A stretch of DNA of 60,456 nt. It comes from Candidatus Peregrinibacteria bacterium. Its GTDB lineage: Bacteria > Patescibacteriota > Gracilibacteria > Peribacterales > Peribacteraceae. This document shows positions 1-51,284 of the stretch, one piece after another. The DNA is taken from NCBI GenBank assembly GCA_016178535.1, contig JACOTD010000078.1, positions 1 through 60,456 on the forward strand, given 5' to 3'. The position numbers were made by a program, and so were the translations under genes. The first letter of the stretch is position 1. Each line of letters opens with the position of its first letter. The notes under the pieces were generated by a model. That model saw only the letters and a list, made by a program, of their open reading frames with translations. It was not told where the DNA came from and made no database searches.

Positions 1-130
1 CGTTCAGCGGCAAACCGGAAGCCAGTCGGTCGATGACATTTTCAAGCTTCTCCATGTCGAATCCAGATTTTCTGATTCTTTTGTAATCCTTTTTGTACCG
101 TTTCGTGGCTGTGACGTGATAGCGCTTCAT
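1..130 (-). CDS. YafQ/RelE-family type II toxin; only the N-terminal ~43 aa lie in the window
   Basis: The minus-strand ATG at 130..128 reads MKRYHVTATKRYKKDYKRIRKSGFDMEKLENVIDRLASGLPLN... This is a K/R-rich N-terminus of the YafQ/RelE mRNA-interferase type. Its ATG overlaps the stop of the upstream DinJ-like gene (ATGA at 127..130). Confidence 0.6.
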   Translation of the reverse strand, partial: MKRYHVTATKRYKKDYKRIRKSGFDMEKLENVIDRLASGLPLN

Positions 131-20969: not shown

Positions 20970-21806
20970 TCACCACTCCCCAAACGATCCCAACGTCATC
21001 TTCCTCTCCCACAGCATCTCGGGCAGTTCCGGGTCCGTGAGCATTGCGAGTTCCGTGAGACGTTGGGGATCCCGGTCGAACTCGCTCCCGGTCGGGTTCG
21101 CGCTCCCCGGGTGCACCATCAATTCGGTCGTGCCCTCGGGGAGGCGGGCGAGGATGTGGCGCAGATTCTTCTTGCTTGCCGAGCCCACGAGCGCGAGCCC
21201 GCGGAAGTGATTGGTCGAGCCGATGCCGTTCTCTTCGTAGAGCGGGCGCACCGCTTCGGCTTGGGCACTGATCGCCTTCGCCGCTTCGAGCCGCTCGGGT
21301 GCGATTTCCCAGCCGAAATGGGGCAAGGGTTCGATCGGCAATCGGACGAAGCGAATCCCGTAGCGCAGGAGAATGGGGATCGCGAGCGGAACGATCGTCG
21401 GATGCACGTGGATGTGATGGTGTCCGTCGACGTGGGTGGGCGCCTCGCGGCGGTGATCGAGGAACCACTCGGCTTGTGCCCGAAGTTCGCGCTCAATATG
21501 CGTTCCATCAATGGCTCCTTCGTCGAGTGATCGTCGAAGTTGATGACGATCGAGGAAGGCGTCGTCGCGGCTGAGGAGGGAGGCGACGTCCGCGGCATTG
21601 CTGATGGGAGATCCCTCGGTGAGGTTCCAATGAAGTCCCGTGGGGAGCTTTCGTTCATGAGCATGCTTGGCGGCCGTCTCACTGTCGCTCCCATTCACAA
21701 TCAGTGTCGCGCTCGAGACGATGCCGAATTCAAACGCCTCGAAGATTCCGTGGCTCCTCTGCGGATTGATCCCGAGATCATCGGCGTTGACGATGAGGGT
21801 GCGCAC
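20970..21806 (-). CDS. ChbG/HpnK (YdjC) family carbohydrate deacetylase
   Basis: GTG start: MRTLIVNADDLGINPQRSHGIFEAFEFGIVSSATLIVNG...GLHWNLTEG...VDGHHHIHVHP. Confidence 0.85.
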   Translation of the reverse strand: MRTLIVNADDLGINPQRSHGIFEAFEFGIVSSATLIVNGSDSETAAKHAHERKLPTGLHWNLTEGSPISNAADVASLLSRDDAFLDRHQLRRSLDEGAIDGTHIERELRAQAEWFLDHRREAPTHVDGHHHIHVHPTIVPLAIPILLRYGIRFVRLPIEPLPHFGWEIAPERLEAAKAISAQAEAVRPLYEENGIGSTNHFRGLALVGSASKKNLRHILARLPEGTTELMVHPGSANPTGSEFDRDPQRLTELAMLTDPELPEMLWERKMTLGSFGEW

Positions 21807-22282: not shown

Positions 22283-24073
22283 TCATCGTCGTTCCTCTCC
22301 AGTTGCTACGTTCAGCGCATGCTCCTCCTTCGGATTGATCGCGAGAGCCCTCCGCGCACTCTCCTGCGCGTCACTCTTCTCCCCGATCTGGTTCTGAATT
22401 TGCGCCAATCTTCCCCATGCTTCGGCGTCATGCGGATCGAGGATCAAGGCTTGCTGAAACGCCGTGATCGCGCTCTGCGGGTCTCCCTTTTTCGCGTACA
22501 GGATGCCGAGATTAAAGAACGCGGCTTCCAGGGTGGGGTCGCTCGTAGCGGCGGCTTCGAAGTGGGTGGTTGCTTCGTCGATGTTGTTTTCGGCCGAAAG
22601 GAGCGTGCCGAGGTTCAGGTGCGCGCGCGCGTGGTGCGGGTCGAGCGCGAGCGCCTGTGCGAATGCCTTCTTGGCTGCCGGGAGGAGATTCTTGTCGAGG
22701 TCGATGAGCCCAACGTTGTACCACGCTCGTGCCGTGGGGCGGATCGCGATGGAAGCTTTGTACTCAGCGAGCGCGCCATCCGCATTTCCCTCGTCCCGCA
22801 GATAATTCCCGACATTGTTGTGGGCGAGGTGGGAATTCGGATAGAGCGCGAGGGCGTTTCTGAAGAGCGTCTCCGTCTTCGCCCACACGAGCGATTGCCG
22901 GAAGGCCAGGACGCCGAAGATCGTTGTGATGATCATGGTCGGAATCGTCAGCGAGAGCGGGAACATCCTCCATTCATTCCTCTGCTCGAGCAGGAATTTG
23001 GCTGCGAATGCAATGAGCAGGAGCAACCCGATCATCGGCAGATAGGCGTAGCGGTCGAAGGCGAAGTAGAAATCGAGGAAGCCGTCGCCCCTGTTCACGT
23101 TGCCGAAGGTGGGGGCAATCGTGAGGAAGAAGATGCAGGCGCAGAGGAACATCGCACGTGTCCATCGGCGCGAAACGATTACGATCACGAGGAGCGCAAT
23201 CATGACGAAGAGCGAGAAGAGCAGGTGAGGTGAAGCGAGCGTGATCGGCGCGGTGTAGGGGTAGAGGACGGAGAGGTGCATCGGGAGGAGGAATTTCTCG
23301 AGCGTGAAGAGGACGCTTTTTCCTCCGAGCAGTATGTAGTCGAGGATCGTTGCATTCCCGATCGCCGCGGTTTTGCCGCCGTACGCGATGATTCCGAAGA
23401 GAAGACTCAGGAGGAAGTAGAGTGCTTTTTCCCAGACGAGTTTCCATCTCCACGGACGCCCTTCGAATTCATCCAGAGCCAGGAGCAGGAACGGGAGCAG
23501 AATGACGGTCACTTTCGAGAGCAGCGCAAGGAGGAATGTCGCGATGCTCAGCCAGTGCCACAAGCGTTTTTCGGATCGCAGAAAGACGATGTACGTCGCG
23601 AGCGCGAACAAGAAGAAAAACGCCGATTGCAGATCTTTGCGTGCCGCCGCCCACGCAACGGCTTCCGTATTCAGCGGATGCACGAGGAAGAGGAGCGCGC
23701 AGAGGATGGCCAAGTCCTTCCTGCGAACGAGGAGGAGCGCGAGCCAGAAGACGAGCAGGGCATTGGCGATGTGCAGTGCCAGATTATGCGCGTGGTAGAG
23801 GAAGGGATGCAGTCCCGCGATCAGATAGTCGAATTGGTACGAGACGAACGTGAGGGGAATGTAGAGCTCCGGATCATAGGAGGTAAATGCTTTCGCGACA
23901 TTGGTCGGAGTCGGTCCCTGCACGATGGGATTTTTGAAGATCAGCACACCGTCGTCGAAGTCGACGAAGGAATTCCGGAGACTCACGCCGTACACGAGCA
24001 GCGCGATCCCCGTGAGAGCGATGGCCAGCAGGAACCATGCGCGGAGAGAGAAGTCGCGGTCGGGGGGAGGCAT
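22283..24073 (-). CDS. Membrane glycosyltransferase-like (PMT/TMTC-type, GT-C) protein with C-terminal TPR repeats
   Basis: 596 aa. The N-terminal polytopic region begins FVDFDDGVLIFKNPIVQG...YDPELYIPLTFVSYQFDY...HAHNLALHIANALLVFWL. The C-terminus carries several TPR units (AHNNVGNYLRDEGNADGALAEYKASIAIRP..., ARAHLNLGTLL..., AFFNLGILYAKKGDPQSAITAFQQALILDP). Confidence 0.8.
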   Translation of the reverse strand: MPPPDRDFSLRAWFLLAIALTGIALLVYGVSLRNSFVDFDDGVLIFKNPIVQGPTPTNVAKAFTSYDPELYIPLTFVSYQFDYLIAGLHPFLYHAHNLALHIANALLVFWLALLLVRRKDLAILCALLFLVHPLNTEAVAWAAARKDLQSAFFFLFALATYIVFLRSEKRLWHWLSIATFLLALLSKVTVILLPFLLLALDEFEGRPWRWKLVWEKALYFLLSLLFGIIAYGGKTAAIGNATILDYILLGGKSVLFTLEKFLLPMHLSVLYPYTAPITLASPHLLFSLFVMIALLVIVIVSRRWTRAMFLCACIFFLTIAPTFGNVNRGDGFLDFYFAFDRYAYLPMIGLLLLIAFAAKFLLEQRNEWRMFPLSLTIPTMIITTIFGVLAFRQSLVWAKTETLFRNALALYPNSHLAHNNVGNYLRDEGNADGALAEYKASIAIRPTARAWYNVGLIDLDKNLLPAAKKAFAQALALDPHHARAHLNLGTLLSAENNIDEATTHFEAAATSDPTLEAAFFNLGILYAKKGDPQSAITAFQQALILDPHDAEAWGRLAQIQNQIGEKSDAQESARRALAINPKEEHALNVATGEERR

Positions 24074-38345: not shown

Positions 38346-39991
38346 TGATGTCACCTCTCACACTGCGTCGGTTGGAGTCGAACACCCGCCTCATCGCGAA
38401 TCCGTCGCGCCAGACGATGATCGACGATGTGATGAACGCCCGTGAAGCGATTGTCACAAAAACGGGAGCGCTCGCCGCATGGTTCCCCTCAACCGACACC
38501 GGTCGCATCCCCAAAGACACGTACATCGTGAAGCACGGACCGAGCGTCGAAGCCGTCGACTGGACATCTCCGAATGCGCATCCGATGACGCCGGAGATGT
38601 TCGATTGTCTGTTCGATCAAGCACTGGAGATTCTCTCTGCCAAGCGGAAACTCTACGTCCTCGACCGCAGCGTTGGGGCGCAGGAGCAGTACGCGTTGCC
38701 GCTGAAAGTGATGACGGACAGTCCGCTGACGTCGCTCTTCGCCGACACGATGTTTCGGCCATGCTTCGACAGGGCTCAGCATGACAGTTCCAAGAGCGTC
38801 TTCGCCGATCAACCGTTCACGCTCCTCGTGCTTCCGCACGATCCTCTTCGCACGGAAAACTTCGAAGGAGAACTCCGTATCGAGCATGGAGCCATCGTTC
38901 CTCGTGTCGTCGCGATGGACATGGAGCGGCGAATGGGGATCGTGCTGGGGACGAAGTACCTCGGCGCCGTCAAGAAAACGCTCTTCACCGCGATGAATCA
39001 TCTCTTGCCCGATCACGGCGTGCTTCCGCTCCACTGCTCTGCGGTCTCGGACAACTGCGGGGAGACCCATCTCTTCCTCGGGCTCTCGGGGACGGGCAAG
39101 ACGACGCTTTCGACCGCAGCGAATCTCTCGCTCATCGGCGATGACGAGCATCTGTGGTCGAGTGACGGCATCGCGAACATCGAGAACGGCTGCTACGCCA
39201 AGCTCATCCGCTTGAGCACAGAGAAGGAGCCGCAGATTTACGAAGCGGCCTTCGGATCACGCTCGAATGTCACCAATGGCGTCATCATCGAGAATACGAT
39301 GGTCTACCCCGATGGCAGCGTCGACTTGGACGACGATCGTCTTACAGAAAACTCCCGCGCGGCCTACCCGCTCTCGTTCCTCGAGAACACCGTTCCTTCC
39401 GCAACCGGAAGCCATCCGCAAACGATCCTCTTCCTCACCGCCGATGCCGAAGGAGTCCTTCCGCCCATCAGCAAACTGACGCTCCATCAGGCGCTGCTGT
39501 GGTTCCTCATGGGCTACACGAGCAAGCTCGCGGGAACCGAGACGGGCGTGATCGAACCGCAGCCGAACTTCTCCCGCTTCTTCGGCGCGCCGTTCATGCT
39601 CAGGAGACCGCACGACTATCTCGATCTCTTCCAGAAGTTCGTCACCGCGCATGGAAGCGATATCTATTTGGTCAATACTGGGTGGGCGGGAGGCCCGTAC
39701 GGAGTCGGGAAGAGGATGGATATTTCTCTGACGCGCTCGCTCGTCACCTCCGCTCTCACGGGCGCGCTCGAGAGCGTTCCGTACCGTGAAGACCGCCGCT
39801 TCCATCTCTTCGTCCCGGAGAGTTGTCCGGGCATCGATCCGATGCTCCTGAATCCAGAACGTCAGTGGAGCGATCGTGATGCATACGCCAGGAGGGCCGA
39901 CGCGCTCGCGGCAAAATTCGCGGCGACCTTCGAGAAGAATTTCGGCGGAACCGTCGCGGAAGAAATCGCGAGGGAATGTCCTGGGAGATAA
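38345..39991 (+). CDS. pckA: Phosphoenolpyruvate carboxykinase (ATP)
   Basis: The kinase-1a P-loop is FLGLSGTGKTTLS, followed by LIGDDEHLWS, and the ATP-type PEPCK C-terminal NTGWAGGPYGVGKRM. The ATG at 38345 overlaps the aminotransferase stop (TGATG). Confidence 0.92.
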   Translation: MMSPLTLRRLESNTRLIANPSRQTMIDDVMNAREAIVTKTGALAAWFPSTDTGRIPKDTYIVKHGPSVEAVDWTSPNAHPMTPEMFDCLFDQALEILSAKRKLYVLDRSVGAQEQYALPLKVMTDSPLTSLFADTMFRPCFDRAQHDSSKSVFADQPFTLLVLPHDPLRTENFEGELRIEHGAIVPRVVAMDMERRMGIVLGTKYLGAVKKTLFTAMNHLLPDHGVLPLHCSAVSDNCGETHLFLGLSGTGKTTLSTAANLSLIGDDEHLWSSDGIANIENGCYAKLIRLSTEKEPQIYEAAFGSRSNVTNGVIIENTMVYPDGSVDLDDDRLTENSRAAYPLSFLENTVPSATGSHPQTILFLTADAEGVLPPISKLTLHQALLWFLMGYTSKLAGTETGVIEPQPNFSRFFGAPFMLRRPHDYLDLFQKFVTAHGSDIYLVNTGWAGGPYGVGKRMDISLTRSLVTSALTGALESVPYREDRRFHLFVPESCPGIDPMLLNPERQWSDRDAYARRADALAAKFAATFEKNFGGTVAEEIARECPGR

Positions 39992-40039
39992 ACGATGCTT
40001 GCTGCTTTCAAAATGCGTCAATATCCCTACAATTGACCT

Positions 40040-41539
40040 ATGCGCGATATTTTCGATCACGAACGGCTCAGTCCTGCCGTTTCTGGATTGTTGCCAAGCA
40101 TGAATCCTTGGTGGGAAGGAAAGCCAGCCAAGCCGCAACCGCCCTTTCATCGATGGGCGTTTTCCATCACGAAGAAGAAACTCGATTCCGACCTCGCGCC
40201 GATCGTTGTGATACGCGGACCGAGGCAGGTGGGGAAAACCACCCTTCAAATGCAGCTCATCGAACACTACATCAAGGACAGAGGCATCGATCCTTCGCGC
40301 ATACTTCGTGTGCAATTCGACGACCTTCCCTCGTTGAGAGAATTGGCAGATCCCATACTGTCCATTGGTCGTTGGTTTGAAAGTCGCGTGTTGAAGCGAA
40401 CATTCAATCAGGCCGCCACAGACGGACAGCCAGCTTTCCTGTTCTTCGATGAAATACAGAACATCGCCGATTGGGCGATTCAGCTTAAATCTCTTGTCGA
40501 TACTCATCGCGTAAAAGTTCTGGTTACCGGCAGTTCGGCGCTACGAATGACCGCTGGAAAGGACAGCTTGGCAGGTCGCATTGCACAAGTGGATCTCGGC
40601 ACGTTGCTTCTGCGGGAAATCGCCGGCATTCGCTACGGGGAAACCATTGAGCCGCACTTGCCCCATAATGGACTTGATCCTTTACTCCTTCCAGATTTCT
40701 GGCGATCGTTGCAGCAGTATGGACTCAAGAATCGGGAAATCCGCGACCGCGCCTTCAGTGCTTTTTCGGCGAGAGGAGGCTATCCCATCGCTCATGTTCG
40801 CGAAGAGACACCATGGCCGGAAATCGCCGAGCAACTCAATGAGAACGTCGTGAAGCGCGCCATTCAGCACGATCTTCGGATCGGGGAGCGCGGCAAACGG
40901 AGAAACCAGGGGCTGCTCGAGGAGGTTTTCCTGCTCGCCTCCCGATACGTCGGCCAATCGCCCGGGCAGGCCGTATTCGTTCAGGAGGTGCGCAGCGCGC
41001 TTCGAGCAAGTGTGAGCTGGGACAAAATCCGGAATTATCTGAAATTCCTGGATTCCGCTCTTCTCTTGAAGCTCATCGAACCCTTGGAGCTTCGACTGAA
41101 GAAGAAAAAGGGGAATTATAAACTCTGCATCTGCGATCACGGGCTCCGAGCCAGCTGGCTGCGCGAAGTGGTTCCCCTCGATCCCGTCGCATTGCAACGC
41201 CTGAGTCATCTGAGCGATCTCGCGGGACATATTGCAGAGAGCGTCGTGGGGTATTTTCTCGCGGGTTTGCCCAACATGAGTATCAACCATTTCCCCGAAC
41301 GAGACATTGAGCCGGAAATCGACTTTATCCTCACCGTCGGCGCGCATCGCATTCCCGTCGAAGTGAAGTATCGGCAACGCATCGATCCCCACAGAGACAC
41401 CTTGGGGCTGCGGGCCTTTCTCGAGAAGACCGTGTACAACGCTCCGTTCGGCATTCTTGTGACCCTCGATGATACCATTGAAATTCCCGATGCTCGGATC
41501 ATCCCCATCTCCTTGCGGTCATTGTTGCTTCTGCGTTGA
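40040..41539 (+). CDS. COG1373-type AAA+ ATPase (AAA_14 plus a DUF4143-like C-terminal domain)
   Basis: NPWWEGKP...IVVIRGPRQVGKTTLQMQLI (Walker A) and AFLFFDEIQNIADW (Walker B). The C-terminal region with IAESVVGYFL...EIDFILT...IPVEVKY is typical of DUF4143 PD-(D/E)xK-like ends. Confidence 0.8.
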   Translation: MRDIFDHERLSPAVSGLLPSMNPWWEGKPAKPQPPFHRWAFSITKKKLDSDLAPIVVIRGPRQVGKTTLQMQLIEHYIKDRGIDPSRILRVQFDDLPSLRELADPILSIGRWFESRVLKRTFNQAATDGQPAFLFFDEIQNIADWAIQLKSLVDTHRVKVLVTGSSALRMTAGKDSLAGRIAQVDLGTLLLREIAGIRYGETIEPHLPHNGLDPLLLPDFWRSLQQYGLKNREIRDRAFSAFSARGGYPIAHVREETPWPEIAEQLNENVVKRAIQHDLRIGERGKRRNQGLLEEVFLLASRYVGQSPGQAVFVQEVRSALRASVSWDKIRNYLKFLDSALLLKLIEPLELRLKKKKGNYKLCICDHGLRASWLREVVPLDPVALQRLSHLSDLAGHIAESVVGYFLAGLPNMSINHFPERDIEPEIDFILTVGAHRIPVEVKYRQRIDPHRDTLGLRAFLEKTVYNAPFGILVTLDDTIEIPDARIIPISLRSLLLLR

Positions 41540-41560
41540 AATTCAGCCTAGCTTCTCTCG

Positions 41561-41637
41561 AAATCCGCGGCGACCTTCGAGAAGAATTTCGGCGGAACCG
41601 TCGCGGAAGAAATCGCGAGGGAATGTCTGGGGAGGTA
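41561..41637 (+). repeat. Relic second copy of the pckA 3' end (~77 nt)
   Basis: aaatccgcggcgaccttcgagaagaatttcggcggaaccgtcgcggaagaaatcgcgagggaatgtctggggaggtag is near-identical to pckA 39914-39991 (aaattcgcggcgaccttcgagaag...gagggaatgtcctgggagataa). Confidence 0.9.
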
Positions 41638-41648
41638 GGAGATCAACT

Positions 41649-44048
41649 TTACCTTTGAGGATTGGAATTGCTATCCACAGACATACGTCGTTCTTCCGTG
41701 GGATACAATTTTTTCAGCACCAATCCCCATGCCTGATGTTGTCGTTCGGATTGGGATGCCACTCGGATTTGTTCAAGGCGTGAACGCAATTCATTCACAA
41801 GTCTGCGCACGTAAGTGTCTCCGCATTCCACCGTATCAAGCCATCGCCAGGCAATTTCACCGGACAGAATTTTTCTCATGTCTGGCATGGTTACTTCCCA
41901 TGGCTGTTTGCCAAGTTTTCCTGCAACGCCTTCGATGTCGGTACGGAAATCTGCAATTGCCTGAGGATCATCCAATAGAGATTCTTCTGAACGAATCACA
42001 CCTGTTCTATGGGTACTTCTCTGTTCTTCGATAAGGGTGCGTATCGCGCGTTCGAATTGCTCTTCGCTTTCCCAGTGGAGACGCCTGCAATTGAACATCG
42101 TACGCATATTCTTGCTATTCACTCTTCCTACGTATTCGTCAGTTCCTCTTGGTTGTCGCGTGAAGAACGCTGCCATGTACGAGTCATCGTTGAGAATGAA
42201 TTGCAGGGAAAGCTGAGGCAGAGTCACCACGATGTGGTGCCCGTGATGAATGGTAGAATAATCGCGTTGCTGCGTATCAGTTGTATCTGCTCCATCCGTG
42301 TCCCACGCGAATTCTGCGCTTTCACGCTGCTGCAGCAGTACTTTGTGAAGACAGGCAAGTCGAGGCATTGATGTTCTCCTTCCCCCAGGTGTTCCTTCTT
42401 GTGCGTGATCGCTACCATCGCCATCCACCGCATCTGTTTGTCGTTCTCGCGAAAGATATATTCCCTCAACATCATTCGAGTGCAGCAGCCGAGACTCCAG
42501 TGTCCGTAAAGAAGGTACACTCATTGCCGACCACTGATCTTTATCAGCTGCGTTGATGCCCGCGATGAGAAATGTCGCGCTAATGTTGTTCGAGTCTTCA
42601 TCAACGGCGCCGGGCAATTGTGGTTTAGTCGTCGAACCTGGATACAGAATATGGACGAAATCTTGAAATTCGACGAATATGCATGAACGAAGCAACTCCT
42701 CTTGCTCCTTCCATTGAGGACAAAGTATTTCGAGCATTCTCTGCATACGACCTGCAAGTCGCGGCAAATTCTCCTTGATCGCAATTGTTTTCTCCAGAAT
42801 TGGAGATGGAAAGGAGAGAGGCGGAATCCAATTTTTATTGCCTGTCATTTGAACATCATCTGGGGATGCAGTGATACCATTTCCGTTATCTGATCTTATA
42901 AGCGACAAAGTACGTTCTTTCGTCTCAGAGAAGCGGACTCCATTGTCACTATCCTTCCAACCATAAGTACCAATGAGATGAGGCAGATTTCTTTTGGCTC
43001 GAATTGACGGCAGATACCCATGGGGAAATCTTGAAAGTATTCCATGTGCAATCTCTACGTTTGCGCATTCTTGTTCAAAATTGTTGAAAGTATCACGTAC
43101 AGCGCCAATTGCATTGCCATAATGCGATGACGATTGCCCAAATTGATGCATTTCTCCATCATTGAGCGGGTCTTTCGCGTGCTTGGGCCGCCGCATTTCC
43201 CAATTTTGATTTTGCGTTTGCAAAAGACGGCGAAACGCTGCTTGTTTCTCTGCGGGGGGAATTGGAAGTTTGCCAAATGCATGGCGCAACATCGATGTCA
43301 AAAATACTACCGAAAAAATTCTTGGATCAATAGTACCAGGTTCAATGATGTCAATGATTTTCTCCATGCATCGAATGCTTATGGCAATAAGCGCCGTGAG
43401 AAATTCTTCTGGAGACAAACTCGGCATTACCGTTCCAATTTCCATTGCGATTGACTCACTGATTTCCTTAGTAAGATCATGCAGTGTTGCCCGTGTTATC
43501 CCTACGCCCATTCGCACACTCTCTCCATTTTCCGTTGTTGTTACCCTTATTCCTTGATAGATCTGATTGATGGTCTCGCATCGTATTGCTATTGCTGGGT
43601 CCAGAACATCCATGATCGGAGCAATTCTCAATCGATCATTCATGAGCTGAGTCTTGGTATCGTCGCGCAATTTTTGAAGACTGATTCTTTCAGTATGATC
43701 ATCCATCATCAAATTTGCTACCATGAGCGGGTAGAGAGCCTTTTCTCTCAGTCTTTCCGAGGATTCTACGGATCTGGTTGGAACAGTTGGATCATCAGTT
43801 GTCTCTGAATCATTTGATATCGCAACTTGTGGGTTCAGCACATTACCAACTTCATGCCGTGCGGTTAAGCGCTCCCGCTCCAATCGTTGACCCAATTCCT
43901 CTTCAATTGCTCGCAGCAAAGTCTCTTCGTCGGGAGCCAGCGTCTTGCCTTTACGAACACGCCGAGGATCATCTCGTTTGCCTTCCAGTTGTTCTTTTTT
44001 ACGTCGCAATAAAGTTGTCTCTGACGAGGCTATTTGGTCTAGTTTCAT
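41649..44048 (-). CDS. Hypothetical protein, 799 aa, AT-richer foreign composition, no recognisable domain
   Basis: Clean 2.4-kb ORF with an ATG at 44048. Codon usage is visibly A/T3-rich, unlike the flanking genes. No TM or signal peptide is present. The N-terminus is charged and coiled-coil-like (KKEQLEGKRDDPRRVRKGK...EEELGQRLERERL). Confidence 0.7.
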   Translation of the reverse strand: MKLDQIASSETTLLRRKKEQLEGKRDDPRRVRKGKTLAPDEETLLRAIEEELGQRLERERLTARHEVGNVLNPQVAISNDSETTDDPTVPTRSVESSERLREKALYPLMVANLMMDDHTERISLQKLRDDTKTQLMNDRLRIAPIMDVLDPAIAIRCETINQIYQGIRVTTTENGESVRMGVGITRATLHDLTKEISESIAMEIGTVMPSLSPEEFLTALIAISIRCMEKIIDIIEPGTIDPRIFSVVFLTSMLRHAFGKLPIPPAEKQAAFRRLLQTQNQNWEMRRPKHAKDPLNDGEMHQFGQSSSHYGNAIGAVRDTFNNFEQECANVEIAHGILSRFPHGYLPSIRAKRNLPHLIGTYGWKDSDNGVRFSETKERTLSLIRSDNGNGITASPDDVQMTGNKNWIPPLSFPSPILEKTIAIKENLPRLAGRMQRMLEILCPQWKEQEELLRSCIFVEFQDFVHILYPGSTTKPQLPGAVDEDSNNISATFLIAGINAADKDQWSAMSVPSLRTLESRLLHSNDVEGIYLSRERQTDAVDGDGSDHAQEGTPGGRRTSMPRLACLHKVLLQQRESAEFAWDTDGADTTDTQQRDYSTIHHGHHIVVTLPQLSLQFILNDDSYMAAFFTRQPRGTDEYVGRVNSKNMRTMFNCRRLHWESEEQFERAIRTLIEEQRSTHRTGVIRSEESLLDDPQAIADFRTDIEGVAGKLGKQPWEVTMPDMRKILSGEIAWRWLDTVECGDTYVRRLVNELRSRLEQIRVASQSERQHQAWGLVLKKLYPTEERRMSVDSNSNPQR

Positions 44049-44054
44049 ATTGAT

Positions 44055-44083
44055 ATATTAATCTATAAATTCTTTAGAGTCAA
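44055..44083 (-). promoter_or_regulatory. Sigma-70-like promoter for the 799-aa gene (candidate leaderless transcript)
   Basis: On the minus strand: TTGACT (44083-44078), a 17-nt spacer, TAATAT (44060-44055), then atcaat and the ATG at 44048. No Shine-Dalgarno sequence fits in the 6 nt between. Confidence 0.4.
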
Positions 44084-44116
44084 CAAAGGCTTTTTGCCTT
44101 CCTTAAGCACTCTTTA

Positions 44117-44236
44117 ACCCCGGCACCTTCTGCTTCAGAAGCTCCACGACGGCGTCCAAATCTTCATTCACCATGATGTGATCGAAGAGATCCTTTCGCT
44201 CGGAAAAGAAGTCGAGGTCTTTCTCCCATTCTTCTG
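44117..44236 (-). repeat. Relic second copy (~120 nt) of the 3' end of the DUF35-GK gene
   Basis: aaccccggcaccttctgcttcagaagctccacgacggcgtccaaatcttcattcaccatgatgtgatcgaagagatcctttcgctcggaaaagaagtcgaggtctttctcccattcttc versus 44770-44890. About eight differences were counted by eye, including a 1-nt gap. Confidence 0.9.
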
Positions 44237-44325
44237 GACGAGTTTTTTGCGGGTTCCTGATTGACATGCACTAAAAGCTTGCATAGAATTGTCTCATTAG
44301 TGGCTTCGGCCTCCGAGGACTCCGC

Positions 44326-44730
44326 TCACGCGGGGTCCGATTTTATATACGAGGCGATGCATGCACGAACGGAAGTGAATTCTTTGGTGGAGATCATGCC
44401 GATTTTTCGAAGGAGCCGTTTACTGCTGATCGTTCGGAGTTGCGACAAGCAAGCGAATGAAACTCCCCGATCATGAGCAATCCGATGATAGTGCTTGCCG
44501 AATCGTTTCTTCGATGTGAGTGGGATAACCCACAGCATGTATCCGTTGAATTTTTTCACAATGAGAACGGGGCGCTCAAAGTGATCGTTCTTCCCGTCAC
44601 TCTCCACTCCCACATTGATCCCAATTGAGCACCACCACACTTCTCGTTCATGAAAAAATACCGTCCGCTTGTCTTCCTGGGCGTCGAGCTTCTTTTTCAT
44701 GCTGTTCCATTGATCGAAGAGTTTTTGCAT
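44326..44730 (-). CDS. PemK/MazF-like toxin, solitary (no adjacent antitoxin ORF)
   Basis: 134 aa: WNSMKKKLDAQEDKRTVFFHEREVWWCSIGINVGVESDGKNDHFERPVLIVKKFNGYMLWVIPLTSKK. This matches the long-form PemK/MazF pattern (..WW...G.N.G.E.dGk...f.RPvlI..kf). It is AT-richer than the host genes. Confidence 0.7.
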   Translation of the reverse strand: MQKLFDQWNSMKKKLDAQEDKRTVFFHEREVWWCSIGINVGVESDGKNDHFERPVLIVKKFNGYMLWVIPLTSKKRFGKHYHRIAHDRGVSFACLSQLRTISSKRLLRKIGMISTKEFTSVRACIASYIKSDPA

Positions 44731-44757
44731 ATCGGCTCACGGCATGAATCTTCAGTG

Positions 44758-45711
44758 TCACGCCCCCCTCAATCCCGGCACCTTCTGCTTCAGAAGCTCC
44801 ACGACGGCGTCCACGTCTTCATTCACCATGATGTGATCGAAGAGGTCTTTGCGCTCGGAAAAGAAGTCGAGGTCCTTCTCCGCATTCTTCAGGCGGTCGG
44901 CGATGTGCTCTTCGGTGTCGCGGCCTCTTGTTCGGAGTCTGTGCAATAAATGACTCAGCATCGCCCGCTTGCTGTTGCCGGGCGGGAGGAGGCCGCAGGA
45001 GAGGATGGAGCGGCGGCCGTACTGTTCGGCGAGGCCTTGGAGCAAGTGCATCTCGGTGATGACGACGGGAATTTTCCCCGCCTTCCAAATGCGCTCGATG
45101 TCCTGCGCGCGGTAGCCGTACAGACGGTCTTCGGATGAGGAAGGGATCTGCGTGCTCGCGATGATCTCGCCTCGGCTCTGGAGTTCAGCGAAGGTTTTCT
45201 TGGCAATGTAGCGATACTCGCCGTCGTCTCCCGCTTTCTTCCTGCGCGTCGTGTGGATCGGCACGTTCTCGAGGTAGCTGGAACACATCTGAACGAGGAG
45301 GCGGCTGATGGTGGATTTTCCCACGCCCGAGGGGCCAGTCAGTGCAAGAATGTATCCAGGGAAGTTCGGCACTTCCTTCGAAACGGGCAGACGTTGTTTC
45401 GTTGTCTCGTTGTGTTGTTGCTTGTCTTGCGATGCAGGTTCGAATGCGACGTCATACATTCGGAGCTTCTCTCCATTGATTCGAGAAAGTCTCATGCGGG
45501 GGAGAACGGCGTCACCAATCGAACAGGGGGCCGTGAGAGGCGCGAGAACGTTGGAGCCGTCTTCGAGCGCGATGAGGGCGATGCGCCGCGGGAATTTCCC
45601 AAAGGCTGCAGGCGGATGCAGGAGGGTCGTCACGGAGACGACGGTGCCGGGCTGCATCTTGCTCCCGCGCTGCTTGAGCGCACGGTGAAGGGAAGGCGAC
45701 GTGTCAGTCAT
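44758..45711 (-). CDS. Fusion protein: DUF35-type OB-fold domain (thiolase/HMG-CoA-synthase partner) plus a guanylate-kinase-like P-loop domain
   Basis: The N-terminal part GTVVSVTTLLHPPAAFGKFPRRIALIALEDGSNVLAPLTAPCSIGDAVLPRMRL fits the DUF35 OB fold, and no Zn-ribbon Cys pairs are present. The C-terminal part LTGPSGVGKSTISRLL...IHTTRRKKAGDDGEYRYI...LYGY...NEDVD fits a guanylate-kinase-like fold. The ATG at 45711 overlaps the thiolase stop by 8 nt. Confidence 0.75.
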   Translation of the reverse strand: MTDTSPSLHRALKQRGSKMQPGTVVSVTTLLHPPAAFGKFPRRIALIALEDGSNVLAPLTAPCSIGDAVLPRMRLSRINGEKLRMYDVAFEPASQDKQQHNETTKQRLPVSKEVPNFPGYILALTGPSGVGKSTISRLLVQMCSSYLENVPIHTTRRKKAGDDGEYRYIAKKTFAELQSRGEIIASTQIPSSSEDRLYGYRAQDIERIWKAGKIPVVITEMHLLQGLAEQYGRRSILSCGLLPPGNSKRAMLSHLLHRLRTRGRDTEEHIADRLKNAEKDLDFFSERKDLFDHIMVNEDVDAVVELLKQKVPGLRGA

Positions 45712-46831
45712 GCATGCGTTCGAGGATATGTATACCACAGCTCGCGCACGCGCCGCCGAAATTATGCGCCATTCCCCACCTCTCTTCGCGCTCTGTCAAC
45801 TGCTTCGCGAGGTCGTTCAGCTGCTTGATGCCGGTGGCGGCGACGGGGTGTCCGCAGCCTTTGAGTCCACCGCTCGCGTTGATGGCGAAGCGCGTCTTCT
45901 TCCCTTCGTACAAATCCTTGTAGAGCGAAATTCCCTCGCCCGGGTTCGCAAAGCCCAGATCTTCCAGGTTGATGAGAGCGGCGATGGAGAAGCAGTCGTG
46001 GGTCTCGAGGCACGAGAGATCGTCGAGCGTGATGTCGGCTTCTTTCAGCGCTCTCCCACAGGCATCCCTCGACGCCGGGAAGCTCGTGATGGACGGACGC
46101 TTCGTGATGCTGACGGCATCGGAGGCGATGCTCGAGGCGGCGAGACGGAATTCGCTCTCGTGATTGGTCGAGAGGATGCAGGCGGCGCCGCCGTCGCTGA
46201 TGGGGGAGCAATCGAGGAGGCGGAGCGGATCGGCCACGAGCGGGCTTTTGGAAACCGCTTCCGGCGTGATGACGTTTCGAAACTGCGCGAAGAGATTCCC
46301 TTTCGCATTCCTGTGATGTACGGCGGAGACGAGGCTCAGCTCTTCCCGCGTGAGGCCGTGCTCGTGCATGTAGCGCGCGGCGATGAGTCCGAAGATACCG
46401 GGGAACGTGAGGCCCGATGGACGATCTTCTTCGCTGTCCGCTGCAACCATCAGCCCCGCGGCGATGGCATCGACGGAGACGTCGGTCATTTTCTCCGCTC
46501 CGACGACGAGCACCGTCTTCGCTCTGCCGCTCTCGAGGAACGCGCACGCCGTGTGAAGGGCGTACGCCCCCGACCCGCAGGCGGATTCCACCCGGATGGC
46601 GGGCGGGCGGTGAGGGAGCAAGGCCGAAACGAGCGAGCCGAGGTGCGCTTGGCTGCTCGTCACTTCTCCGAGCATATTGCTCACGATGATGGCATCAATC
46701 TCCAGAGCCGTGATGCGCGAGGAATCGATGGCCGCCGTCACGGCTTCCTCAATGAGATCCATCAAACTTTTGTCCCATCGCTCGCCGAAGCGGGTTTGGC
46801 CTTGGCCGATGAGGGAGATGGAAGTGTTCAA
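45704..46831 (-). CDS. Archaeal-type acetyl-CoA C-acetyltransferase (thiolase)
   Basis: 375 aa: VESACGSGAYALHTA (nucleophile Cys), ...ETHDCFSIAAL, GGLKGCGHPVAATG, and NFGGACAS. This is the short thiolase form that pairs with HMG-CoA synthase and DUF35. Confidence 0.88.
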   Translation of the reverse strand: MNTSISLIGQGQTRFGERWDKSLMDLIEEAVTAAIDSSRITALEIDAIIVSNMLGEVTSSQAHLGSLVSALLPHRPPAIRVESACGSGAYALHTACAFLESGRAKTVLVVGAEKMTDVSVDAIAAGLMVAADSEEDRPSGLTFPGIFGLIAARYMHEHGLTREELSLVSAVHHRNAKGNLFAQFRNVITPEAVSKSPLVADPLRLLDCSPISDGGAACILSTNHESEFRLAASSIASDAVSITKRPSITSFPASRDACGRALKEADITLDDLSCLETHDCFSIAALINLEDLGFANPGEGISLYKDLYEGKKTRFAINASGGLKGCGHPVAATGIKQLNDLAKQLTEREERWGMAHNFGGACASCGIHILERMHD

Positions 46832-46872
46832 GGAGGGCAGAAAGGACAGGAAAGTGAGAAAAGGCAGGAAGG

Positions 46873-47898
46873 TCAGTGCGTTCTGGAATGCTCGATGTAC
46901 TGACTGTAATCCACATGCTGTTCTTCGCGCTCGTCTGGCGGAAGTCGCACGCCGTCTCGCAGCATGGTCATGAAGAATGCGTCCGCTCCGGAGCCCGATC
47001 CGTAGGAAACGAGCAGGATCGTCTCATCCTTCTTCGCTTCTTCGAGAACGAACGTCAATCCCAGCGGCGAGCAGGCGCTGTACGTGTTGCCGATGCGCGG
47101 GACGATGAGCCCATGCCGCAGTTGTTCCTTGGTGATGCCGAATTCCTTGGCGATCGCTTGCGGGAACTTGGCATTGGGCATGTGGAGGATGACGTGATCG
47201 ATCTCTCGAAGATCCAGCTTCGCGACTTCCACGATGCCGCGAATCGCTTCTCGAACATGGTGGAAATACCCCGGTTCCCCCGTAAACCGTCCGGCATGGT
47301 GCGGGAACTTCTCGCCGGATGGACGCCAGAAATCCGGCGTGTCGGTGGTGAAGGAAAGCGTTTCTTCGATCCGCGCGATGGCGCTCGCACTCCTCTCGGA
47401 TCCAAGGAGGAGTGCCGCCGCGCCCGCCGACGCCGTGTACTCGAGCGCATCGCCGGGTTTCGCTTGGGCCGTGTCCGATCCGATGGCGAGGCCGTAGTGT
47501 ATCTGACCGCTCCGCACGAACGCATCGACGATCTGCATCGCGGCCGTTCCCGCCTTGCAGGCGAATTCCAAATCCGCGGCGAAGGAGAAGGGATGCAGCT
47601 CGAGGGCGGTTGCGAGCATCGCGCTCGTGGGTTTGACGGCGTAAGGATGGCTCTCGGATCCCACGAACACGGCGGAAACTTCCGAGGACGCGATCCCCGC
47701 CATCGCGATCGCCTGTTTGCTGGCTTCAAAGGCCATGGTGAACGTGTCCTCGTCGGGCGCGGGAACCGTCTTCTCCTCCACTCCGATGCTCGCGGCAATC
47801 CCCCGGCCATCCTGGCCCCAATGCTCGGCGATGGTTGCCGTCGTGATCCGGAACACCGGGAGGTACCTGCCGAAGCTGACGATGGCTGAGTGGGACAT
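46873..47898 (-). CDS. Hydroxymethylglutaryl-CoA synthase (archaeal type)
   Basis: MSHSAIVSFGRYLPVFRI...DEDTFTMAFEA...VGSESHPYAVKPTS...DLEFACKAGT (catalytic Cys)...ILHMPNAKF...GNTYSACSPLGL. The start is taken at the ATG at 47898. Confidence 0.88.
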   Translation of the reverse strand: MSHSAIVSFGRYLPVFRITTATIAEHWGQDGRGIAASIGVEEKTVPAPDEDTFTMAFEASKQAIAMAGIASSEVSAVFVGSESHPYAVKPTSAMLATALELHPFSFAADLEFACKAGTAAMQIVDAFVRSGQIHYGLAIGSDTAQAKPGDALEYTASAGAAALLLGSERSASAIARIEETLSFTTDTPDFWRPSGEKFPHHAGRFTGEPGYFHHVREAIRGIVEVAKLDLREIDHVILHMPNAKFPQAIAKEFGITKEQLRHGLIVPRIGNTYSACSPLGLTFVLEEAKKDETILLVSYGSGSGADAFFMTMLRDGVRLPPDEREEQHVDYSQYIEHSRTH

Positions 47899-48060
47899 CC
47901 GGGGAAGGATAGCAGGAAAATGAAAGATGTCTTCAGGAATATCGCAGCTCGGTGACATCCCACTTGCCCGATGCCGATGACCATGGATACTCCTCAGCCG
48001 ATGCAGCCAGTCCTTCGACAACGGGATTTTGATGGATAGAACGCAGGACCGCCGCCGATC

Positions 48061-49269
48061 TCAACATGATCTGCCAAGCTTCTCATGAGCCTTCGCCAAA
48101 CTATGGCTTGCCAGTGCAGCCAGGAGTGACAATTCCCCCGCGAGCACAGCCGCTCCACAACTCTCCGCAACGTGGCGACAGGGATGTATGGTTCGACAGG
48201 GCTCACCATGACATCCCAAAAGCATGGAGAGACATTGGTTCTGCGCGGGCAGTCCCGTTCCTCCTCCGCGAACTCCGACGAGGATTGCCGGGAGCCGTAC
48301 AGTGATCTTCAATCCGTTCTCAACTTGGGAGACGCTCGTGTCCGCGAGCGATCCTTCCACCACGTGCGCGGCATCTTGTCCGGTTGCCAGGTAAAGCGCA
48401 GCAATCACATTCGCCGCATGAAGATTGCTCCCGATTGCTCCCGCGATCTCGGATCCCAGTTCCAGCTTCGCTCTAGCGACTTCCAGAAGATCGACGCTCG
48501 AGGATTTCAGAATGGATCCAAGAATTTCTTCGGGGATCGTCGCTTCCGCAAAGACCTCGTAGCCCCGACCGCGCTCGTAGGTGCGCAAGCTCGGCTTTTT
48601 ATCGCTCTCCACGTTCGCAGCAACGGTCACGAAGCTGCAGCCGCCAATCGTCTCCGCGATCCACTCGCCCACAGACTGCGCGGCGATCGTGATCATGTTC
48701 ATGCCCATGGCTTCATCGGTATCGGCGGAGACTGTGAGGAAGACGTAGTCATCGCGCTCGTCGATTTCGAAGTTCATGACCTTCAGATGTTTGCTTGTGC
48801 GCTCTGCAATCGCAATCCATTCGGCCGACCTTGTTTTTACACTGTCCACTTTCCCTGCCTGTCCCTGCCTCGCCGGCAGGCGGGCGGCAGGTCCACTTTC
48901 CACTCGCAGCGCAATGGAGCGGCTGATCCCGCGATGTTCGGATGATGTCTTCACTCCACCGGACGCGCTCACCGCCTTGCATCCGCGGTTCACGCTGGCC
49001 ACGAGCGCTCCTTCCGTGGTTGCGAGCGGCAGATGGATATTGTGTTTTTCGTTTGAGCTGAATGTCACGGCCAAAGGTCCCGCATACCCAACGGGAATCG
49101 GCACCGCGCCGAACATCTGTTCGCAGTTCTTCTCGTCTGCAGCTCCGAGATCCTCATCGAGGAAACGCGTCCTGGAAAGATCAATGTCGAGTTCCCGCTC
49201 GATGCGACTGCGCCGCTCATTGCAGCGATCAGTGGGGGAAAGGCCGGGGGGCAGGGAACGAAGATCCAT
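48061..49269 (-). CDS. HMG-CoA reductase (class I-like)
   Basis: CEQMFGAVPIPVGYAGPL...LPLATTEGALVASVNRGCKA...DAMGMNMIT...GSNLHAANVIAALYLATGQDAAHVVEGS...VGVRGGGTGL. It contains an in-frame repeat-derived insert at 48843-48906. Confidence 0.9.
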   Translation of the reverse strand: MDLRSLPPGLSPTDRCNERRSRIERELDIDLSRTRFLDEDLGAADEKNCEQMFGAVPIPVGYAGPLAVTFSSNEKHNIHLPLATTEGALVASVNRGCKAVSASGGVKTSSEHRGISRSIALRVESGPAARLPARQGQAGKVDSVKTRSAEWIAIAERTSKHLKVMNFEIDERDDYVFLTVSADTDEAMGMNMITIAAQSVGEWIAETIGGCSFVTVAANVESDKKPSLRTYERGRGYEVFAEATIPEEILGSILKSSSVDLLEVARAKLELGSEIAGAIGSNLHAANVIAALYLATGQDAAHVVEGSLADTSVSQVENGLKITVRLPAILVGVRGGGTGLPAQNQCLSMLLGCHGEPCRTIHPCRHVAESCGAAVLAGELSLLAALASHSLAKAHEKLGRSC

Positions 49270-49356
49270 GGGAAGAATGACGAGTTACGAATTACGATTG
49301 GAAGATTGGAGCATTGAACATTCATTCGTACATCGCAATTCGTCAATCGTACATGC

Positions 49357-50364
49357 TCAGTTGATCACATGCGCCCCTTTCCCCGTATGCGCGACAAACA
49401 CCGTGCATCCCTGTTGTTCGTGAGCGAAGTGCAGCACGTCTTCCTTGGCTTCCGCCGGGCAGAAGAGGTGGACGGTGGGACCGGCGTCCATCGTGTAGAG
49501 GACGGGCAGGCGCTTCATCCGCCGGTACACCGTGATCTCCTCGAGGATCAGTCGCGTGTCGCGCGTGAGGTACTGGAGCGAGGGCGTACTCGTGCGCATC
49601 ACCTCGTGCATGTCGAGGCAATCCTCCTCCGCCACGCGTTGGAGCTTCTCGAAGTCCCGTGTGCGGATGGCATCGATGCATTCGCGTTGTCTTCTGGGGA
49701 TCTCCTGCACGCGCTTGGGGAAGAGAGGACTCGTGCGCGCCAGTGAATGACCTTCCGTCGATCCGTACTCCTTCTCCTTCCGGCTCGGGACGATGATGAT
49801 GTCGTAGAGGAGCCAATGTTGATCATCCGCGACGGGAACGGCCTTCGCGCTGTCGATGGCGTCGCCCGTGCCCGCCTCGAGCGCAACGTACCCGTCGAAT
49901 GCGCCGCGCGCTGCGGATCCCGATCCGAGTCTTCCGATCACGCTGATCTCCTCCCGCGAGAGTTTCCGCTCCGTTTCGATGAGTCCCGCGTACGCCTGCG
50001 CGAGGCAACTGAAGACGGCTGCGGACGAGGCGATGCCGATGCCCGGAGGGATCGCGGAATGGATGGTGATCGAGACGGATGCGGGGATCGCTTCGGGAGA
50101 ACCCAACTCGGCGAGATACTGTTTCGTGAGTTCCAGATGACGGTTGAATCGCAGCACGTGCTTCATGGTCATCCTCCGCTCTCTGCCATCAGATTCGAAC
50201 GAGTGAATGTCGAGGACATCCGAGTCATCCACGATGATCTCGACGGAAGGCGTATTGAGCGCCATGGAGAGCGAATCCGCGGCGGGCAGACGCAGGCCGT
50301 CGTTGCGGTTGCCCCAGTACTTGATGAGGGCGATGTTCGGGGTGGAGCGGGCAGTGATTGGCAT
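49357..50364 (-). CDS. GHMP-family (di)phosphomevalonate decarboxylase
   Basis: MPITARSTPNIALIKYWGNRNDGLRLPAADSLSMAL...IPPGIGIASSAAVFSCLA...GSGSAARG...TMDAGPTVHLF. The substrate (mevalonate-5-PP versus mevalonate-5-P) cannot be told from sequence by eye. Confidence 0.85.
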   Translation of the reverse strand: MPITARSTPNIALIKYWGNRNDGLRLPAADSLSMALNTPSVEIIVDDSDVLDIHSFESDGRERRMTMKHVLRFNRHLELTKQYLAELGSPEAIPASVSITIHSAIPPGIGIASSAAVFSCLAQAYAGLIETERKLSREEISVIGRLGSGSAARGAFDGYVALEAGTGDAIDSAKAVPVADDQHWLLYDIIIVPSRKEKEYGSTEGHSLARTSPLFPKRVQEIPRRQRECIDAIRTRDFEKLQRVAEEDCLDMHEVMRTSTPSLQYLTRDTRLILEEITVYRRMKRLPVLYTMDAGPTVHLFCPAEAKEDVLHFAHEQQGCTVFVAHTGKGAHVIN

Positions 50365-50372
50365 GCGTGAAC

Positions 50373-50408
50373 GATACAGAAAACACCCGCCTTTGTAGAG
50401 GCGGGCGT
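50373..50408 (-). terminator. Rho-independent-terminator-like hairpin between mvk and the decarboxylase gene
   Basis: Minus strand: ACGCCCGCC-TCTACAAA-GGCGGGTGT followed by TTTCTGT. It lies 16 nt after the mvk stop and just upstream of the next ATG (50364). Confidence 0.45.
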
Positions 50409-50423
50409 CGGCATGCCAGATTT

Positions 50424-51284
50424 TCAATGCACAATACTGAATCCAGAGCGTTCGGAAATGAATCGCAGTGCTTCCGAATCTTTGTGCAGTCCCAAGACGA
50501 CTCCGCTGCAGCCAGTCCGCCCTCCCGCACCAATGACTTTCGCTGCACCTCTCATTTCTTCCATTCCCTCGATGAGTCTTTGCACTCGCTGCGGCACTAC
50601 GCCGAGCGCGACTTGAGCGCGGTGATGGTCGGGAATGACAGAAGCGAGCGGTTCGCCTCCTTCGATTCTCTCCGTGCATCGGCCGATGATTTCAAAGAAC
50701 GGCATCAGCTCTTTTTTCCTCGCTTGCACCCACGCGACGAGTTCGGGAGTCGTTTCTCTTGGCATCCCCGTGTCGATGAGGATCATCTCCTGCTCCAGCG
50801 AAGAGGGGAGTGCGATGTCTTTTGGCTCATGGCCGCGCTGGAATCGCAGCGGACGATTATTCCAGATAACGGCGAAGTCGAGGCCGCTGTTCCCCGGGTT
50901 CACGGCATCCTCGATCTGCTGCGCATGATTTTCACAGCCTTCGCCGAACAAGCATCGTGCGATCGCAATGACGGCGGCAGTCGAAGAGCCCATGCCTTTT
51001 CCGATCGGAATGTCATTTTCGATCGTGATTGTCCCGAACCATTTCCGATCTGCGATTTTCTCAGATTCTCGAACAATGCGGTCGAGATAATTTTGCCACG
51101 CAGGATGCGTCATAGACGGATCGCAGCGGAGTTCCAGTGTTCCCGAGTCCCTCTCTTCGAACGTCACGGTCAATCGCTGCCGCGAAGGCATGGCGATTCC
51201 CGGGAAGCCGGAGACGACCGCATGGTCGCCGCTCAGGATAATCTTGCCGGGGACGGAGACAGTGCGAGATGGCATGGAGATCAT
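50424..51284 (-). CDS. mvk: Mevalonate kinase (GHMP family)
   Basis: VSVPGKIILSGDHAVVSG (motif I) and IPIGKGMGSSTAAVIAIARCL (GHMP motif II). Its position heads the mevalonate operon. Confidence 0.85.
   Translation of the reverse strand: MISMPSRTVSVPGKIILSGDHAVVSGFPGIAMPSRQRLTVTFEERDSGTLELRCDPSMTHPAWQNYLDRIVRESEKIADRKWFGTITIENDIPIGKGMGSSTAAVIAIARCLFGEGCENHAQQIEDAVNPGNSGLDFAVIWNNRPLRFQRGHEPKDIALPSSLEQEMILIDTGMPRETTPELVAWVQARKKELMPFFEIIGRCTERIEGGEPLASVIPDHHRAQVALGVVPQRVQRLIEGMEEMRGAAKVIGAGGRTGCSGVVLGLHKDSEALRFISERSGFSIVH

Follow-up and report, generated by a model that had tools for sequence, protein, structure and literature searches.

Leaderless genes of bacteria, such as lambda cI transcribed from PRM and those of Actinobacteria and Deinococcus-Thermus, have a recognisable layout, in which the -10 element ends about 6-9 nucleotides (nt) before the start, no Shine-Dalgarno (SD) sequence is present and the predicted 5' end coincides with the AUG (or GUG) or is adjacent to it. 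Direct recognition of a 5'-terminal AUG is established for leaderless mRNAs, as is the distance between the -10 element and the start site for sigma-70. The same layout is found at a gene encoding a protein of 799 amino acids (aa) on contig JACOTD010000078.1 of a Candidatus Peregrinibacteria bacterium (assembly GCA_016178535.1), of which positions 1 to 60,456 (60,456 nt) were analysed and are called the window here. Unlike the other bacteria with leaderless genes, this lineage belongs to the candidate phyla radiation and is reported to be SD-scarce and to lack the anti-SD sequence (PMC10783764), and the layout looks like its default.

The closest described proteins are those of an unnamed hypothetical-protein family from Ca. 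Peribacter, Peribacterales and Peregrinibacteria (for example MBT4119701.1, HLC75587.1 and TSC58953.1). They have the same C-terminal domain of about 380 residues as the 799-aa protein and the motifs (L)PRL..L...LL, F.WD, GH.(V/I)VVT, EQF and CG..(Y/F)L in common with it. Like the 799-aa protein they are soluble, acidic and without a Pfam domain, and their genes have the same promoter-start geometry. However, the identity is only 22-33% and confined to the C-terminal half, the N-terminal half being unrelated, and the 799-aa gene differs from its relatives in its locus, being part of an insertion, and in an AT content far above that of the host. The family is already catalogued as hypothetical proteins but unstudied. 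The reading that we favour, and hold to be reasonably probable, is that the 799-aa gene forms a single-gene unit of the leaderless type with a layout normal for the lineage, that its product belongs to a family restricted to Peregrinibacteria, and that the gene is accessory cargo at this site.

The coding-strand sequence upstream of the gene reads AAGGCAAAAAGCCTT-TG-TTGACT-(17 nt)-TAATAT-ATCAAT-ATG. The arrangement TTGACT-17-TAATAT-6-ATG that had been given in a preliminary description of this DNA is therefore exact, and ATCAAT is the whole sequence between the -10 hexamer and the ATG, which leaves no room for an SD sequence, as had also been noted; nothing SD-like is found in it. The label of a near-consensus promoter needs qualification, as the match of 9/12 is just the threshold of the scan and the 7-kb region holds three such sites compared with 4.2 expected from shuffled sequences.

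To judge the promoter, DNA was collected for 16 family members with known starts, which represent roughly nine to eleven independent genomic positions. All 16 members have a -35/-10 pair with 6-10 nt between the end of the -10 element and the start codon. The promoters are of the type TTGAC(A/T/G)-16..18-TAnnnT and near-consensus in most members (weaker in L002, L007 and L101; L numbers denote the loci and contigs compared). When 14 members were formally scored, 12 of them had a promoter next to the start that scored 9/12 or better, whereas only 5 of 103 other genes from the same loci, all with an upstream gap, had one (Fisher p = 7e-11). The proteins concerned are 20-60% identical and are encoded at many different loci. 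Because the promoter abuts the start in proteins of such low identity, it is taken to be real, with a predicted leader of 0-3 nt. A leaderless mRNA of the 799-aa gene is well supported by this comparison, and the earlier proposal of an autonomous leaderless or near-leaderless unit gains its support from the family, not from the single sequence.

In an ndk-linked subgroup of the family the -35 hexamer forms one half of a perfect palindrome, TTGACA-N3-TGTCAA, which is absent from the 799-aa gene of the window. Five of the six loci with this palindrome are ndk-linked. Of the seven occurrences of the relaxed form TTGAC-N5-GTCAA in 281 kb, six lie ahead of family genes. This suggests that the palindrome over the -35 element is a candidate operator controlling expression in one subgroup. 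The features of the window and of the family loci are collected in Table 1.

Table 1. Positions of the features in the window and at the loci of relatives; window positions unless a locus is named.
Feature	Position	Strand	Remarks
799-aa open reading frame (ORF)	41649..44048	minus	ATG start; uninterrupted reading frame; NCBI: hypothetical protein HY285_04885, Candidatus Peregrinibacteria bacterium
N-terminal half, residues 1-414	42807..44048	minus	helical, partly disordered; low-confidence model; sequence and length not conserved across family
Conserved C-terminal domain, residues ~415-795	41664..42806	minus	predicted alpha/beta subdomains, acidic disordered linker, helical bundle; sole part common to the 24 relatives
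-35 hexamer TTGACT	44078..44083	minus	from sequence and promoter scan
-10 hexamer TAATAT	44055..44060	minus	17 nt past -35, 6 nt ahead of ATG
ATG start codon	44046..44048	minus	predicted transcription start at its A (44048) or within 1-2 nt
Hairpin GAAGGC-AAAAA-GCCUUU	44085..44101	minus	just past stop of displaced 3' end of upstream gene
Insertion of 4.77 kb	39992..44757		between convergent pckA and last gene of mevalonate operon
pckA 3'-end remnant	41561..41637	plus	77 nt, 95% identical to 39914-39990; ends 11 nt from stop of 799-aa ORF
OB/guanylate-kinase-like gene 3'-end remnant	44103..44267	minus	direct repeat 44107-44226, 120 nt, 91% identical to 44762-44881
AAA_14/DUF4143 ATPase gene	40040-41539	plus	TACAAT-6-ATG
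MazF/PemK-like gene	44326-44730	minus	134 aa
Window gene	14265-15770		TATACT-6-ATG
Window gene	17515-18132		TAGGAT-9-ATG
Window gene	18211-20118		TGgTAGAAT-8-ATG
Window gene	20970-21806		TGTAGAAT-6-GTG
Window gene	22283-24073		TAGGAT-6-ATG
Family promoter, L004			TTGACA-16-TAGAAT-9-ATG
Family promoter, L009			TTGACA-16-TAAAAT-9-ATG
Family promoter, L010			TTGACT-18-TAAAAT-9-ATG
Family promoter, L015			TTGACG-17-TAGAAT-7-ATG
Family promoter, L017			TTGACA-17-TACAAT-6-ATG
Family promoter, L018			TTGCTA-17-TATAAT-8-ATG
Family promoter, L102			TTGACG-16-TAAAAT-8-GTG
Family promoter, L002			TG-TATAAT-7-ATG
Palindrome TTGACA-N3-TGTCAA, L009	7964-7978		
Palindrome TTGACA-N3-TGTCAA, L012	3934-3948		
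Palindrome TTGACA-N3-TGTCAA, L013	383-397		
Palindrome TTGACA-N3-TGTCAA, L014	2155-2169		
Palindrome TTGACA-N3-TGTCAA, L015	2876-2890		
Palindrome TTGACA-N3-TGTCAA, L017	2193-2207		

The neighbouring host genes had been described as different in this respect. However, six other genes of the window, the ATPase gene at 40040-41539 among them, are likewise without an SD sequence and have a -10-like hexamer at 6-9 nt from the start, several of them with a preceding TGn. To extend this, 101 non-family Peregrinibacteria genes with an upstream gap were pooled from loci including the window, L004, L007, L010 and L015. A -10-like box 5-10 nt before the start is present in 24 of these 101 genes, and in 14 of them it lies at exactly 6 nt, compared with 0-5 genes for any other single distance; the box is often TGn-extended. 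SD cores are not positionally enriched in the window, and Ca. Peribacter riflensis is listed among the SD-scarce organisms without a CCUCC anti-SD sequence (PMC10783764). The leaderless layout thus seems to be in general use in the Peregrinibacteria lineage and not peculiar to the 799-aa gene. What sets the family apart, as judged from the upstream regions compared, is the full, strong -35 element in addition to the -10 element; family members carry a full consensus -35, whereas many other leaderless-type genes in Peregrinibacteria genomes are without one. A functional link of the neighbouring MazF to leaderless translation was considered and rejected, since MazF does not co-occur with the family and the lineage is SD-independent anyway.

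The reading frame itself is long and clean, as had been reported. An in-frame TAA is located four codons 5' of the ATG, and because of this stop an earlier start can be excluded. The gene has a GC content of 46.5% and a GC content at third codon positions (GC3) of 0.41, compared with a mean GC of 57.5% for the window and a GC3 of 0.6-0.85 (about 0.7) for host genes. It is compositionally foreign to its host and much more AT-rich. No transmembrane segment or signal peptide is predicted in the product, in line with the preliminary description, and the charged coiled-coil N-terminus proposed there agrees with a helical prediction for this part.

The protein had been regarded as an orphan, and in a word-indexed homologue search it indeed matched only itself, even with family alignments as input. 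Exhaustive scoring of 1.84 billion representative proteins with HMMER phmmer, by contrast, retrieved 24 distant relatives with E values from 1.8e-46 to 5e-4, and the orphan has become a member of a lineage-restricted family. The relatives are 434-1620 aa long and align only to query residues ~406-790, at 22-33% identity; tblastn against the family loci confirms the similarity to the 799-aa protein. Every named relative is from Ca. Peribacter, Peribacteria, Peribacterales or Peregrinibacteria. A profile of the ndk-linked subgroup (A2) found six further loci in GTDB genomes, which come from the same groups, one of them labelled only as a metagenome-assembled genome of the Patescibacteria group; this subgroup profile alone was used for the GTDB and IMG/VR scans, as the whole-family alignment is too divergent. 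On the similarities detected, the 799-aa gene belongs to a small, lineage-restricted, Peregrinibacteria-only family, which comprises about 25 clusters at 50% identity.

In Pfam, NCBIfam, PADLOC and PHROGs no convincing match was obtained for the 799-aa protein or any of the 25 family members. The best PADLOC hit of the 799-aa protein has E = 0.055, and one of the 25 members reaches E = 0.0028 to PDC-M38B (PADLOC-DB 2.0). The family alignment gives the C-domain consensus motifs LPRL..LR..LL, F..DE, GHYVVVT, Q.LVSDD, EQF and FGG.ACG..YLDRLA. The near-invariant residues, in the numbering of the 799-aa protein and read from family alignments that included this protein itself, are R563, L571/L572, D583, S620, Q664, G743, L747 and hydrophobic positions. 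In these alignments no Cys, His, Lys or acidic residue of the kind expected in a catalytic or metal-binding site is conserved, and neither is any cluster of Cys, His or acidic residues. The His-rich patches and the R-x5-H string that had been pointed out earlier (QQRDYSTIHHGHH) are not conserved in the family either, and the patch was rejected as a metal or active site; likewise, 'SDD..K' was rejected as a PD-(D/E)xK-like motif, since D and K are both unconserved. The N-terminal halves of the family are unalignable, of variable length and mostly helical. All members are soluble and acidic (pI 4.8-6.8) and have no transmembrane segments.

The structure was modelled with AlphaFold2 and the family alignment, whereby the N-terminal half was poorly and residues ~420-795 were well modelled. 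When the C-domain was modelled alone, a predicted local distance difference test score (pLDDT) of 83.9 and a predicted template modelling score (pTM) of 0.82 were obtained. Two small alpha/beta units and a helical bundle at the C-terminus make up the model, together with an acidic linker that is disordered. In Foldseek it gave no credible match to the PDB (best E = 1.2, template modelling score at most 0.14) or to BFVD (best E = 0.3), and sequence-profile searches of the PDB were empty. Matches of the full-length model to translin, 14-3-3 and designed bundles (E at least 0.07) were rejected as spurious helical matches. Structure prediction, Foldseek and sequence searches thus leave the earlier statement that no known motif or family is recognised in place. 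The C-domain, as modelled, resembles no detectable known sequence family and no solved or viral fold, these being the structures covered by PDB and BFVD, and is apparently a new domain.

In five species the family gene directly follows ndk, and while the Ndk proteins of these species are 88-95% identical, the family proteins are only 33-60% identical. Between L009 and L014 the number of nonsynonymous substitutions per site (dN) is 0.66 for the family gene compared with 0.076 for ndk; between L004 and L019 it is 0.52 compared with 0.17 and 0.44 for two adjacent glycosyltransferase genes. The ratio to synonymous substitutions (dN/dS) for L004 and L019 is about 0.17 in the C-terminal and about 0.5 in the N-terminal half, values that are approximate because dS is saturated. 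These comparisons indicate a family that is kept vertically in some clades, with a constrained C-domain, yet is fast-evolving overall, and that the 799-aa gene is a real, constrained coding gene.

The loci of the other members lie after ndk, in glycosyltransferase clusters or between blocks of ATP synthase genes. The closest relative, P0002, lies between atpC and atpI (L002 9507-12900), at the junction of atpD-atpC and atpI-B-E-F-H-A-G, and has a GC content of 0.565 with flanks of 0.62. Across L002-L020, L101 and L102 the GC content of the family genes is 0.38-0.61, that of the host flanks 0.39-0.66. In GC-rich hosts family genes are up to 14 GC points below their flanks, also where synteny is conserved, and in AT-rich hosts their GC content is equal to or above that of the flanks.

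At the site in the window the gene order is pckA, the AAA_14/DUF4143 ATPase gene, the pckA remnant, the 799-aa gene (reverse), the kinase-like remnant, mazF (reverse) and the OB/guanylate-kinase-like gene (reverse). The insertion thus contains the ATPase gene, the 799-aa ORF and the MazF/PemK-like gene. In the related metagenome contig L021 (PckA 66%, aminotransferase 51% and kinase-like protein 51% identical to those of the window) pckA and the kinase-like gene converge 8 nt apart (6500-6530), which represents the empty site; because of this short distance the segment in the window is regarded as an insertion. A metagenome scan with pckA returned mostly distant phyla, and L021 alone was informative. 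Both remnants keep the frame and the stop codon. The 799-aa gene appears to sit between what seem to be the original 3' ends of its neighbours, the two outer cassettes having arrived later with replacement 3' ends. Each outer cassette (ATPase; MazF) is bracketed by a direct repeat of 77 or 120 nt, in which the 3' end of the neighbouring gene is copied in frame. From its sequence, the pattern looks like a homology-anchored insertion, in which foreign cassettes supply the 3' ends that replace the original ones.

The MazF/PemK-like gene of the insertion has a Pfam match with E = 2e-11 and matches PHROG 9567 with E = 1e-18; no recognisable antitoxin gene is located beside it. It starts 27 nt past the stop of the kinase-like gene, and this short distance makes its co-transcription with the mevalonate operon probable. 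The 799-aa protein was rejected as its type II antitoxin: it is 799 aa long and has its own promoter, the remnant and the hairpin lie between the two genes, and no MazF is found near the relatives. The mevalonate-pathway operon (44758-50679, minus strand) contains MVD-like, HMG-CoA reductase, HMG-CoA-synthase-like and thiolase genes. The product of its last gene is 326 aa long and fuses a weak DUF35/OB_ChsH2_C-like domain (E = 4e-5) to a guanylate-kinase-like P-loop domain; it might be a thiolase/HMGCS scaffold protein joined to a non-orthologous phosphomevalonate kinase.

For the 799-aa gene we propose that the sigma-70-type promoter (TTGACT-17-TAATAT) would set the transcription start at the A of the ATG or within a nucleotide or two of it. 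This would give an mRNA free of leader and SD sequence, of which the 5'-terminal AUG would be recognised directly by the ribosome, IF2 and fMet-tRNA. The product is a soluble acidic protein in which a conserved C-domain of about 380 residues follows an N-terminal half that varies within the family and is mostly helical. From the conserved positions it is probably non-enzymatic, and our best guess, made with low confidence, is a binding or scaffold protein, in which the C-domain might be the module for function or oligomerisation that all members have in common, and specificity might come from the fast-evolving N-terminal half. The gene itself is accessory cargo in a small hotspot of insertion, where its neighbours encode a candidate-defence ATPase and a solitary MazF.

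Several points weigh against this interpretation. The 9/12 promoter alone is not above chance and is insignificant without the comparative data, and the transcription start at the ATG is a predicted one. The family loci are not all independent, the estimate being about nine to eleven positions, and the starts of the comparison genes are those of the longest ORF, so that some are probably wrong. The gap of 9 nt in most relatives implies a leader of about 2-3 nt, not zero. The functional guess draws mainly on negatives (no motifs, no matches), and the low GC3 (0.41 vs about 0.7 in the host) together with the neighbouring genes also fits a role in defence or conflict.

Such a role is possible, although we consider it improbable. 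The gene would then encode a single-protein system against phages or mobile genetic elements, or a protein that acts together with the ATPase or the MazF encoded next to it, whereby the N-terminal half senses the invader and the C-domain is the effector. Like defence islands and the candidate systems of PADLOC, the locus is accessory and fast-evolving and contains a PDC-S01-type ATPase (the AAA_14/DUF4143 protein matches this candidate system with E = 1e-33) and a MazF-like toxin gene. All of these lie within a 4.8-kb accessory insertion at a site that is empty in the relative L021, and the composition of the 799-aa gene is foreign. In addition, the evolutionary rate of the family is three to nine times that of two housekeeping neighbours, ndk and the glycosyltransferase gene GT2 (but only about 1.2 times that of a third, GT1), and the N-terminal half is variable. 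However, unlike the cargo of defence islands, no family member has a convincing PADLOC match, and no nuclease, NTPase, TIR, Sir2 or similar motif and no recognisable effector domain is found in the 799-aa protein. The relatives lie outside defence contexts, among housekeeping genes (ndk, glycosyltransferase clusters, ATP synthase blocks), and neither MazF nor AAA_14 genes were found near any other family member. One fixed locus in five species is also unlike typical defence cargo, and the remnants of flanking genes between the three cassettes suggest separate insertions.

It is unlikely that the string in the AT-rich spacer resembles a promoter by chance and that the gene is instead transcribed by read-through from the kinase-like gene and mazF, with leadered, SD-independent translation. 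The upstream genes share the strand, the match is 9/12 only, and such sites are no commoner in the region than in shuffled sequences. The hairpin in front of the promoter, which in the preliminary description separated the ORF from the MazF cassette, bears on this point. It exists, with -13.1 kcal/mol and z = -2.6 compared with shuffles, and thus folds better than these; its stem has six pairs including three G-C, and its tail UUUGUU lies partly inside the stem. However, the terminator scan of the region does not list it as a terminator, and it is not a canonical one. It is plausibly an old, weak terminator of the displaced gene end, with possible insulation of the 799-aa unit. Against a chance match stand the -35/-10/start geometry in 16/16 relatives at unrelated loci, with the p value of 7e-11 for the 14 scored, and the fact that 6 nt is the most frequent distance of the -10 element from the start in the lineage.

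Quite unlikely, too, is an assembly chimera, in which a low-GC gene from another population was stitched in at the repeated 3' ends. Repeats bound the 799-aa gene on both sides, its GC3 is strongly unlike that of the host, and an independent contig of the Logan assembly, L001, which is identical to window positions 41598-44148, ends inside both repeats. However, this identity takes in about 40 nt of each repeat and variants specific to the 41561-41637 copy, and the repeat copies are only 91-95% identical and thus not collapsed duplicates. A simple chimera of two strains gives no pckA remnant downstream of the ATPase cassette, and the family and the contig are both from Peregrinibacteria. The source sample of the gene's assembly is SRR12113389, and the gene was seen in three samples.

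Very unlikely is a replication, transposition or structural gene of a mobile element (prophage remnant, insertion sequence, integrative element or plasmid): although the GC3 is below that of the host, the gene lies within an insertion and its position differs among the family subgroups, tblastn of 50,697 phage and 72,556 plasmid records gave no match, the ndk-linked subgroup profile (not the 799-aa protein itself) found no related locus in IMG/VR, PHROGs and BFVD were without a match, the 799-aa protein has no transposase domain, no inverted repeats or short target duplications flank the ORF, no integrase, transposase, tRNA or Rfam element was found nearby in ORF, Rfam and tRNA scans, and the synteny after ndk is stable across species.

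We therefore return to the single-gene, leaderless-type unit of a lineage-restricted family as the favoured reading. A bolder version of it can be entertained only tentatively: a new, Peregrinibacteria-specific fold with strongly autonomous expression, in which the C-domain and a diverging N-terminal half take part in an arms race, be it in host-cell interaction of presumed episymbionts or as single-gene defence, with the operator acting in one subgroup.

The finding reveals no new mechanism, and genomes of this kind encode a great many hypothetical proteins that are lineage-specific. In Peregrinibacteria the -10 element at a fixed distance of 6-9 nt is a common signal of gene starts and usable for placing start codons and the heads of operons. 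The confidently modelled C-domain without a solved or viral match is a reasonable target for structural and functional work on the biology of the candidate phyla radiation.

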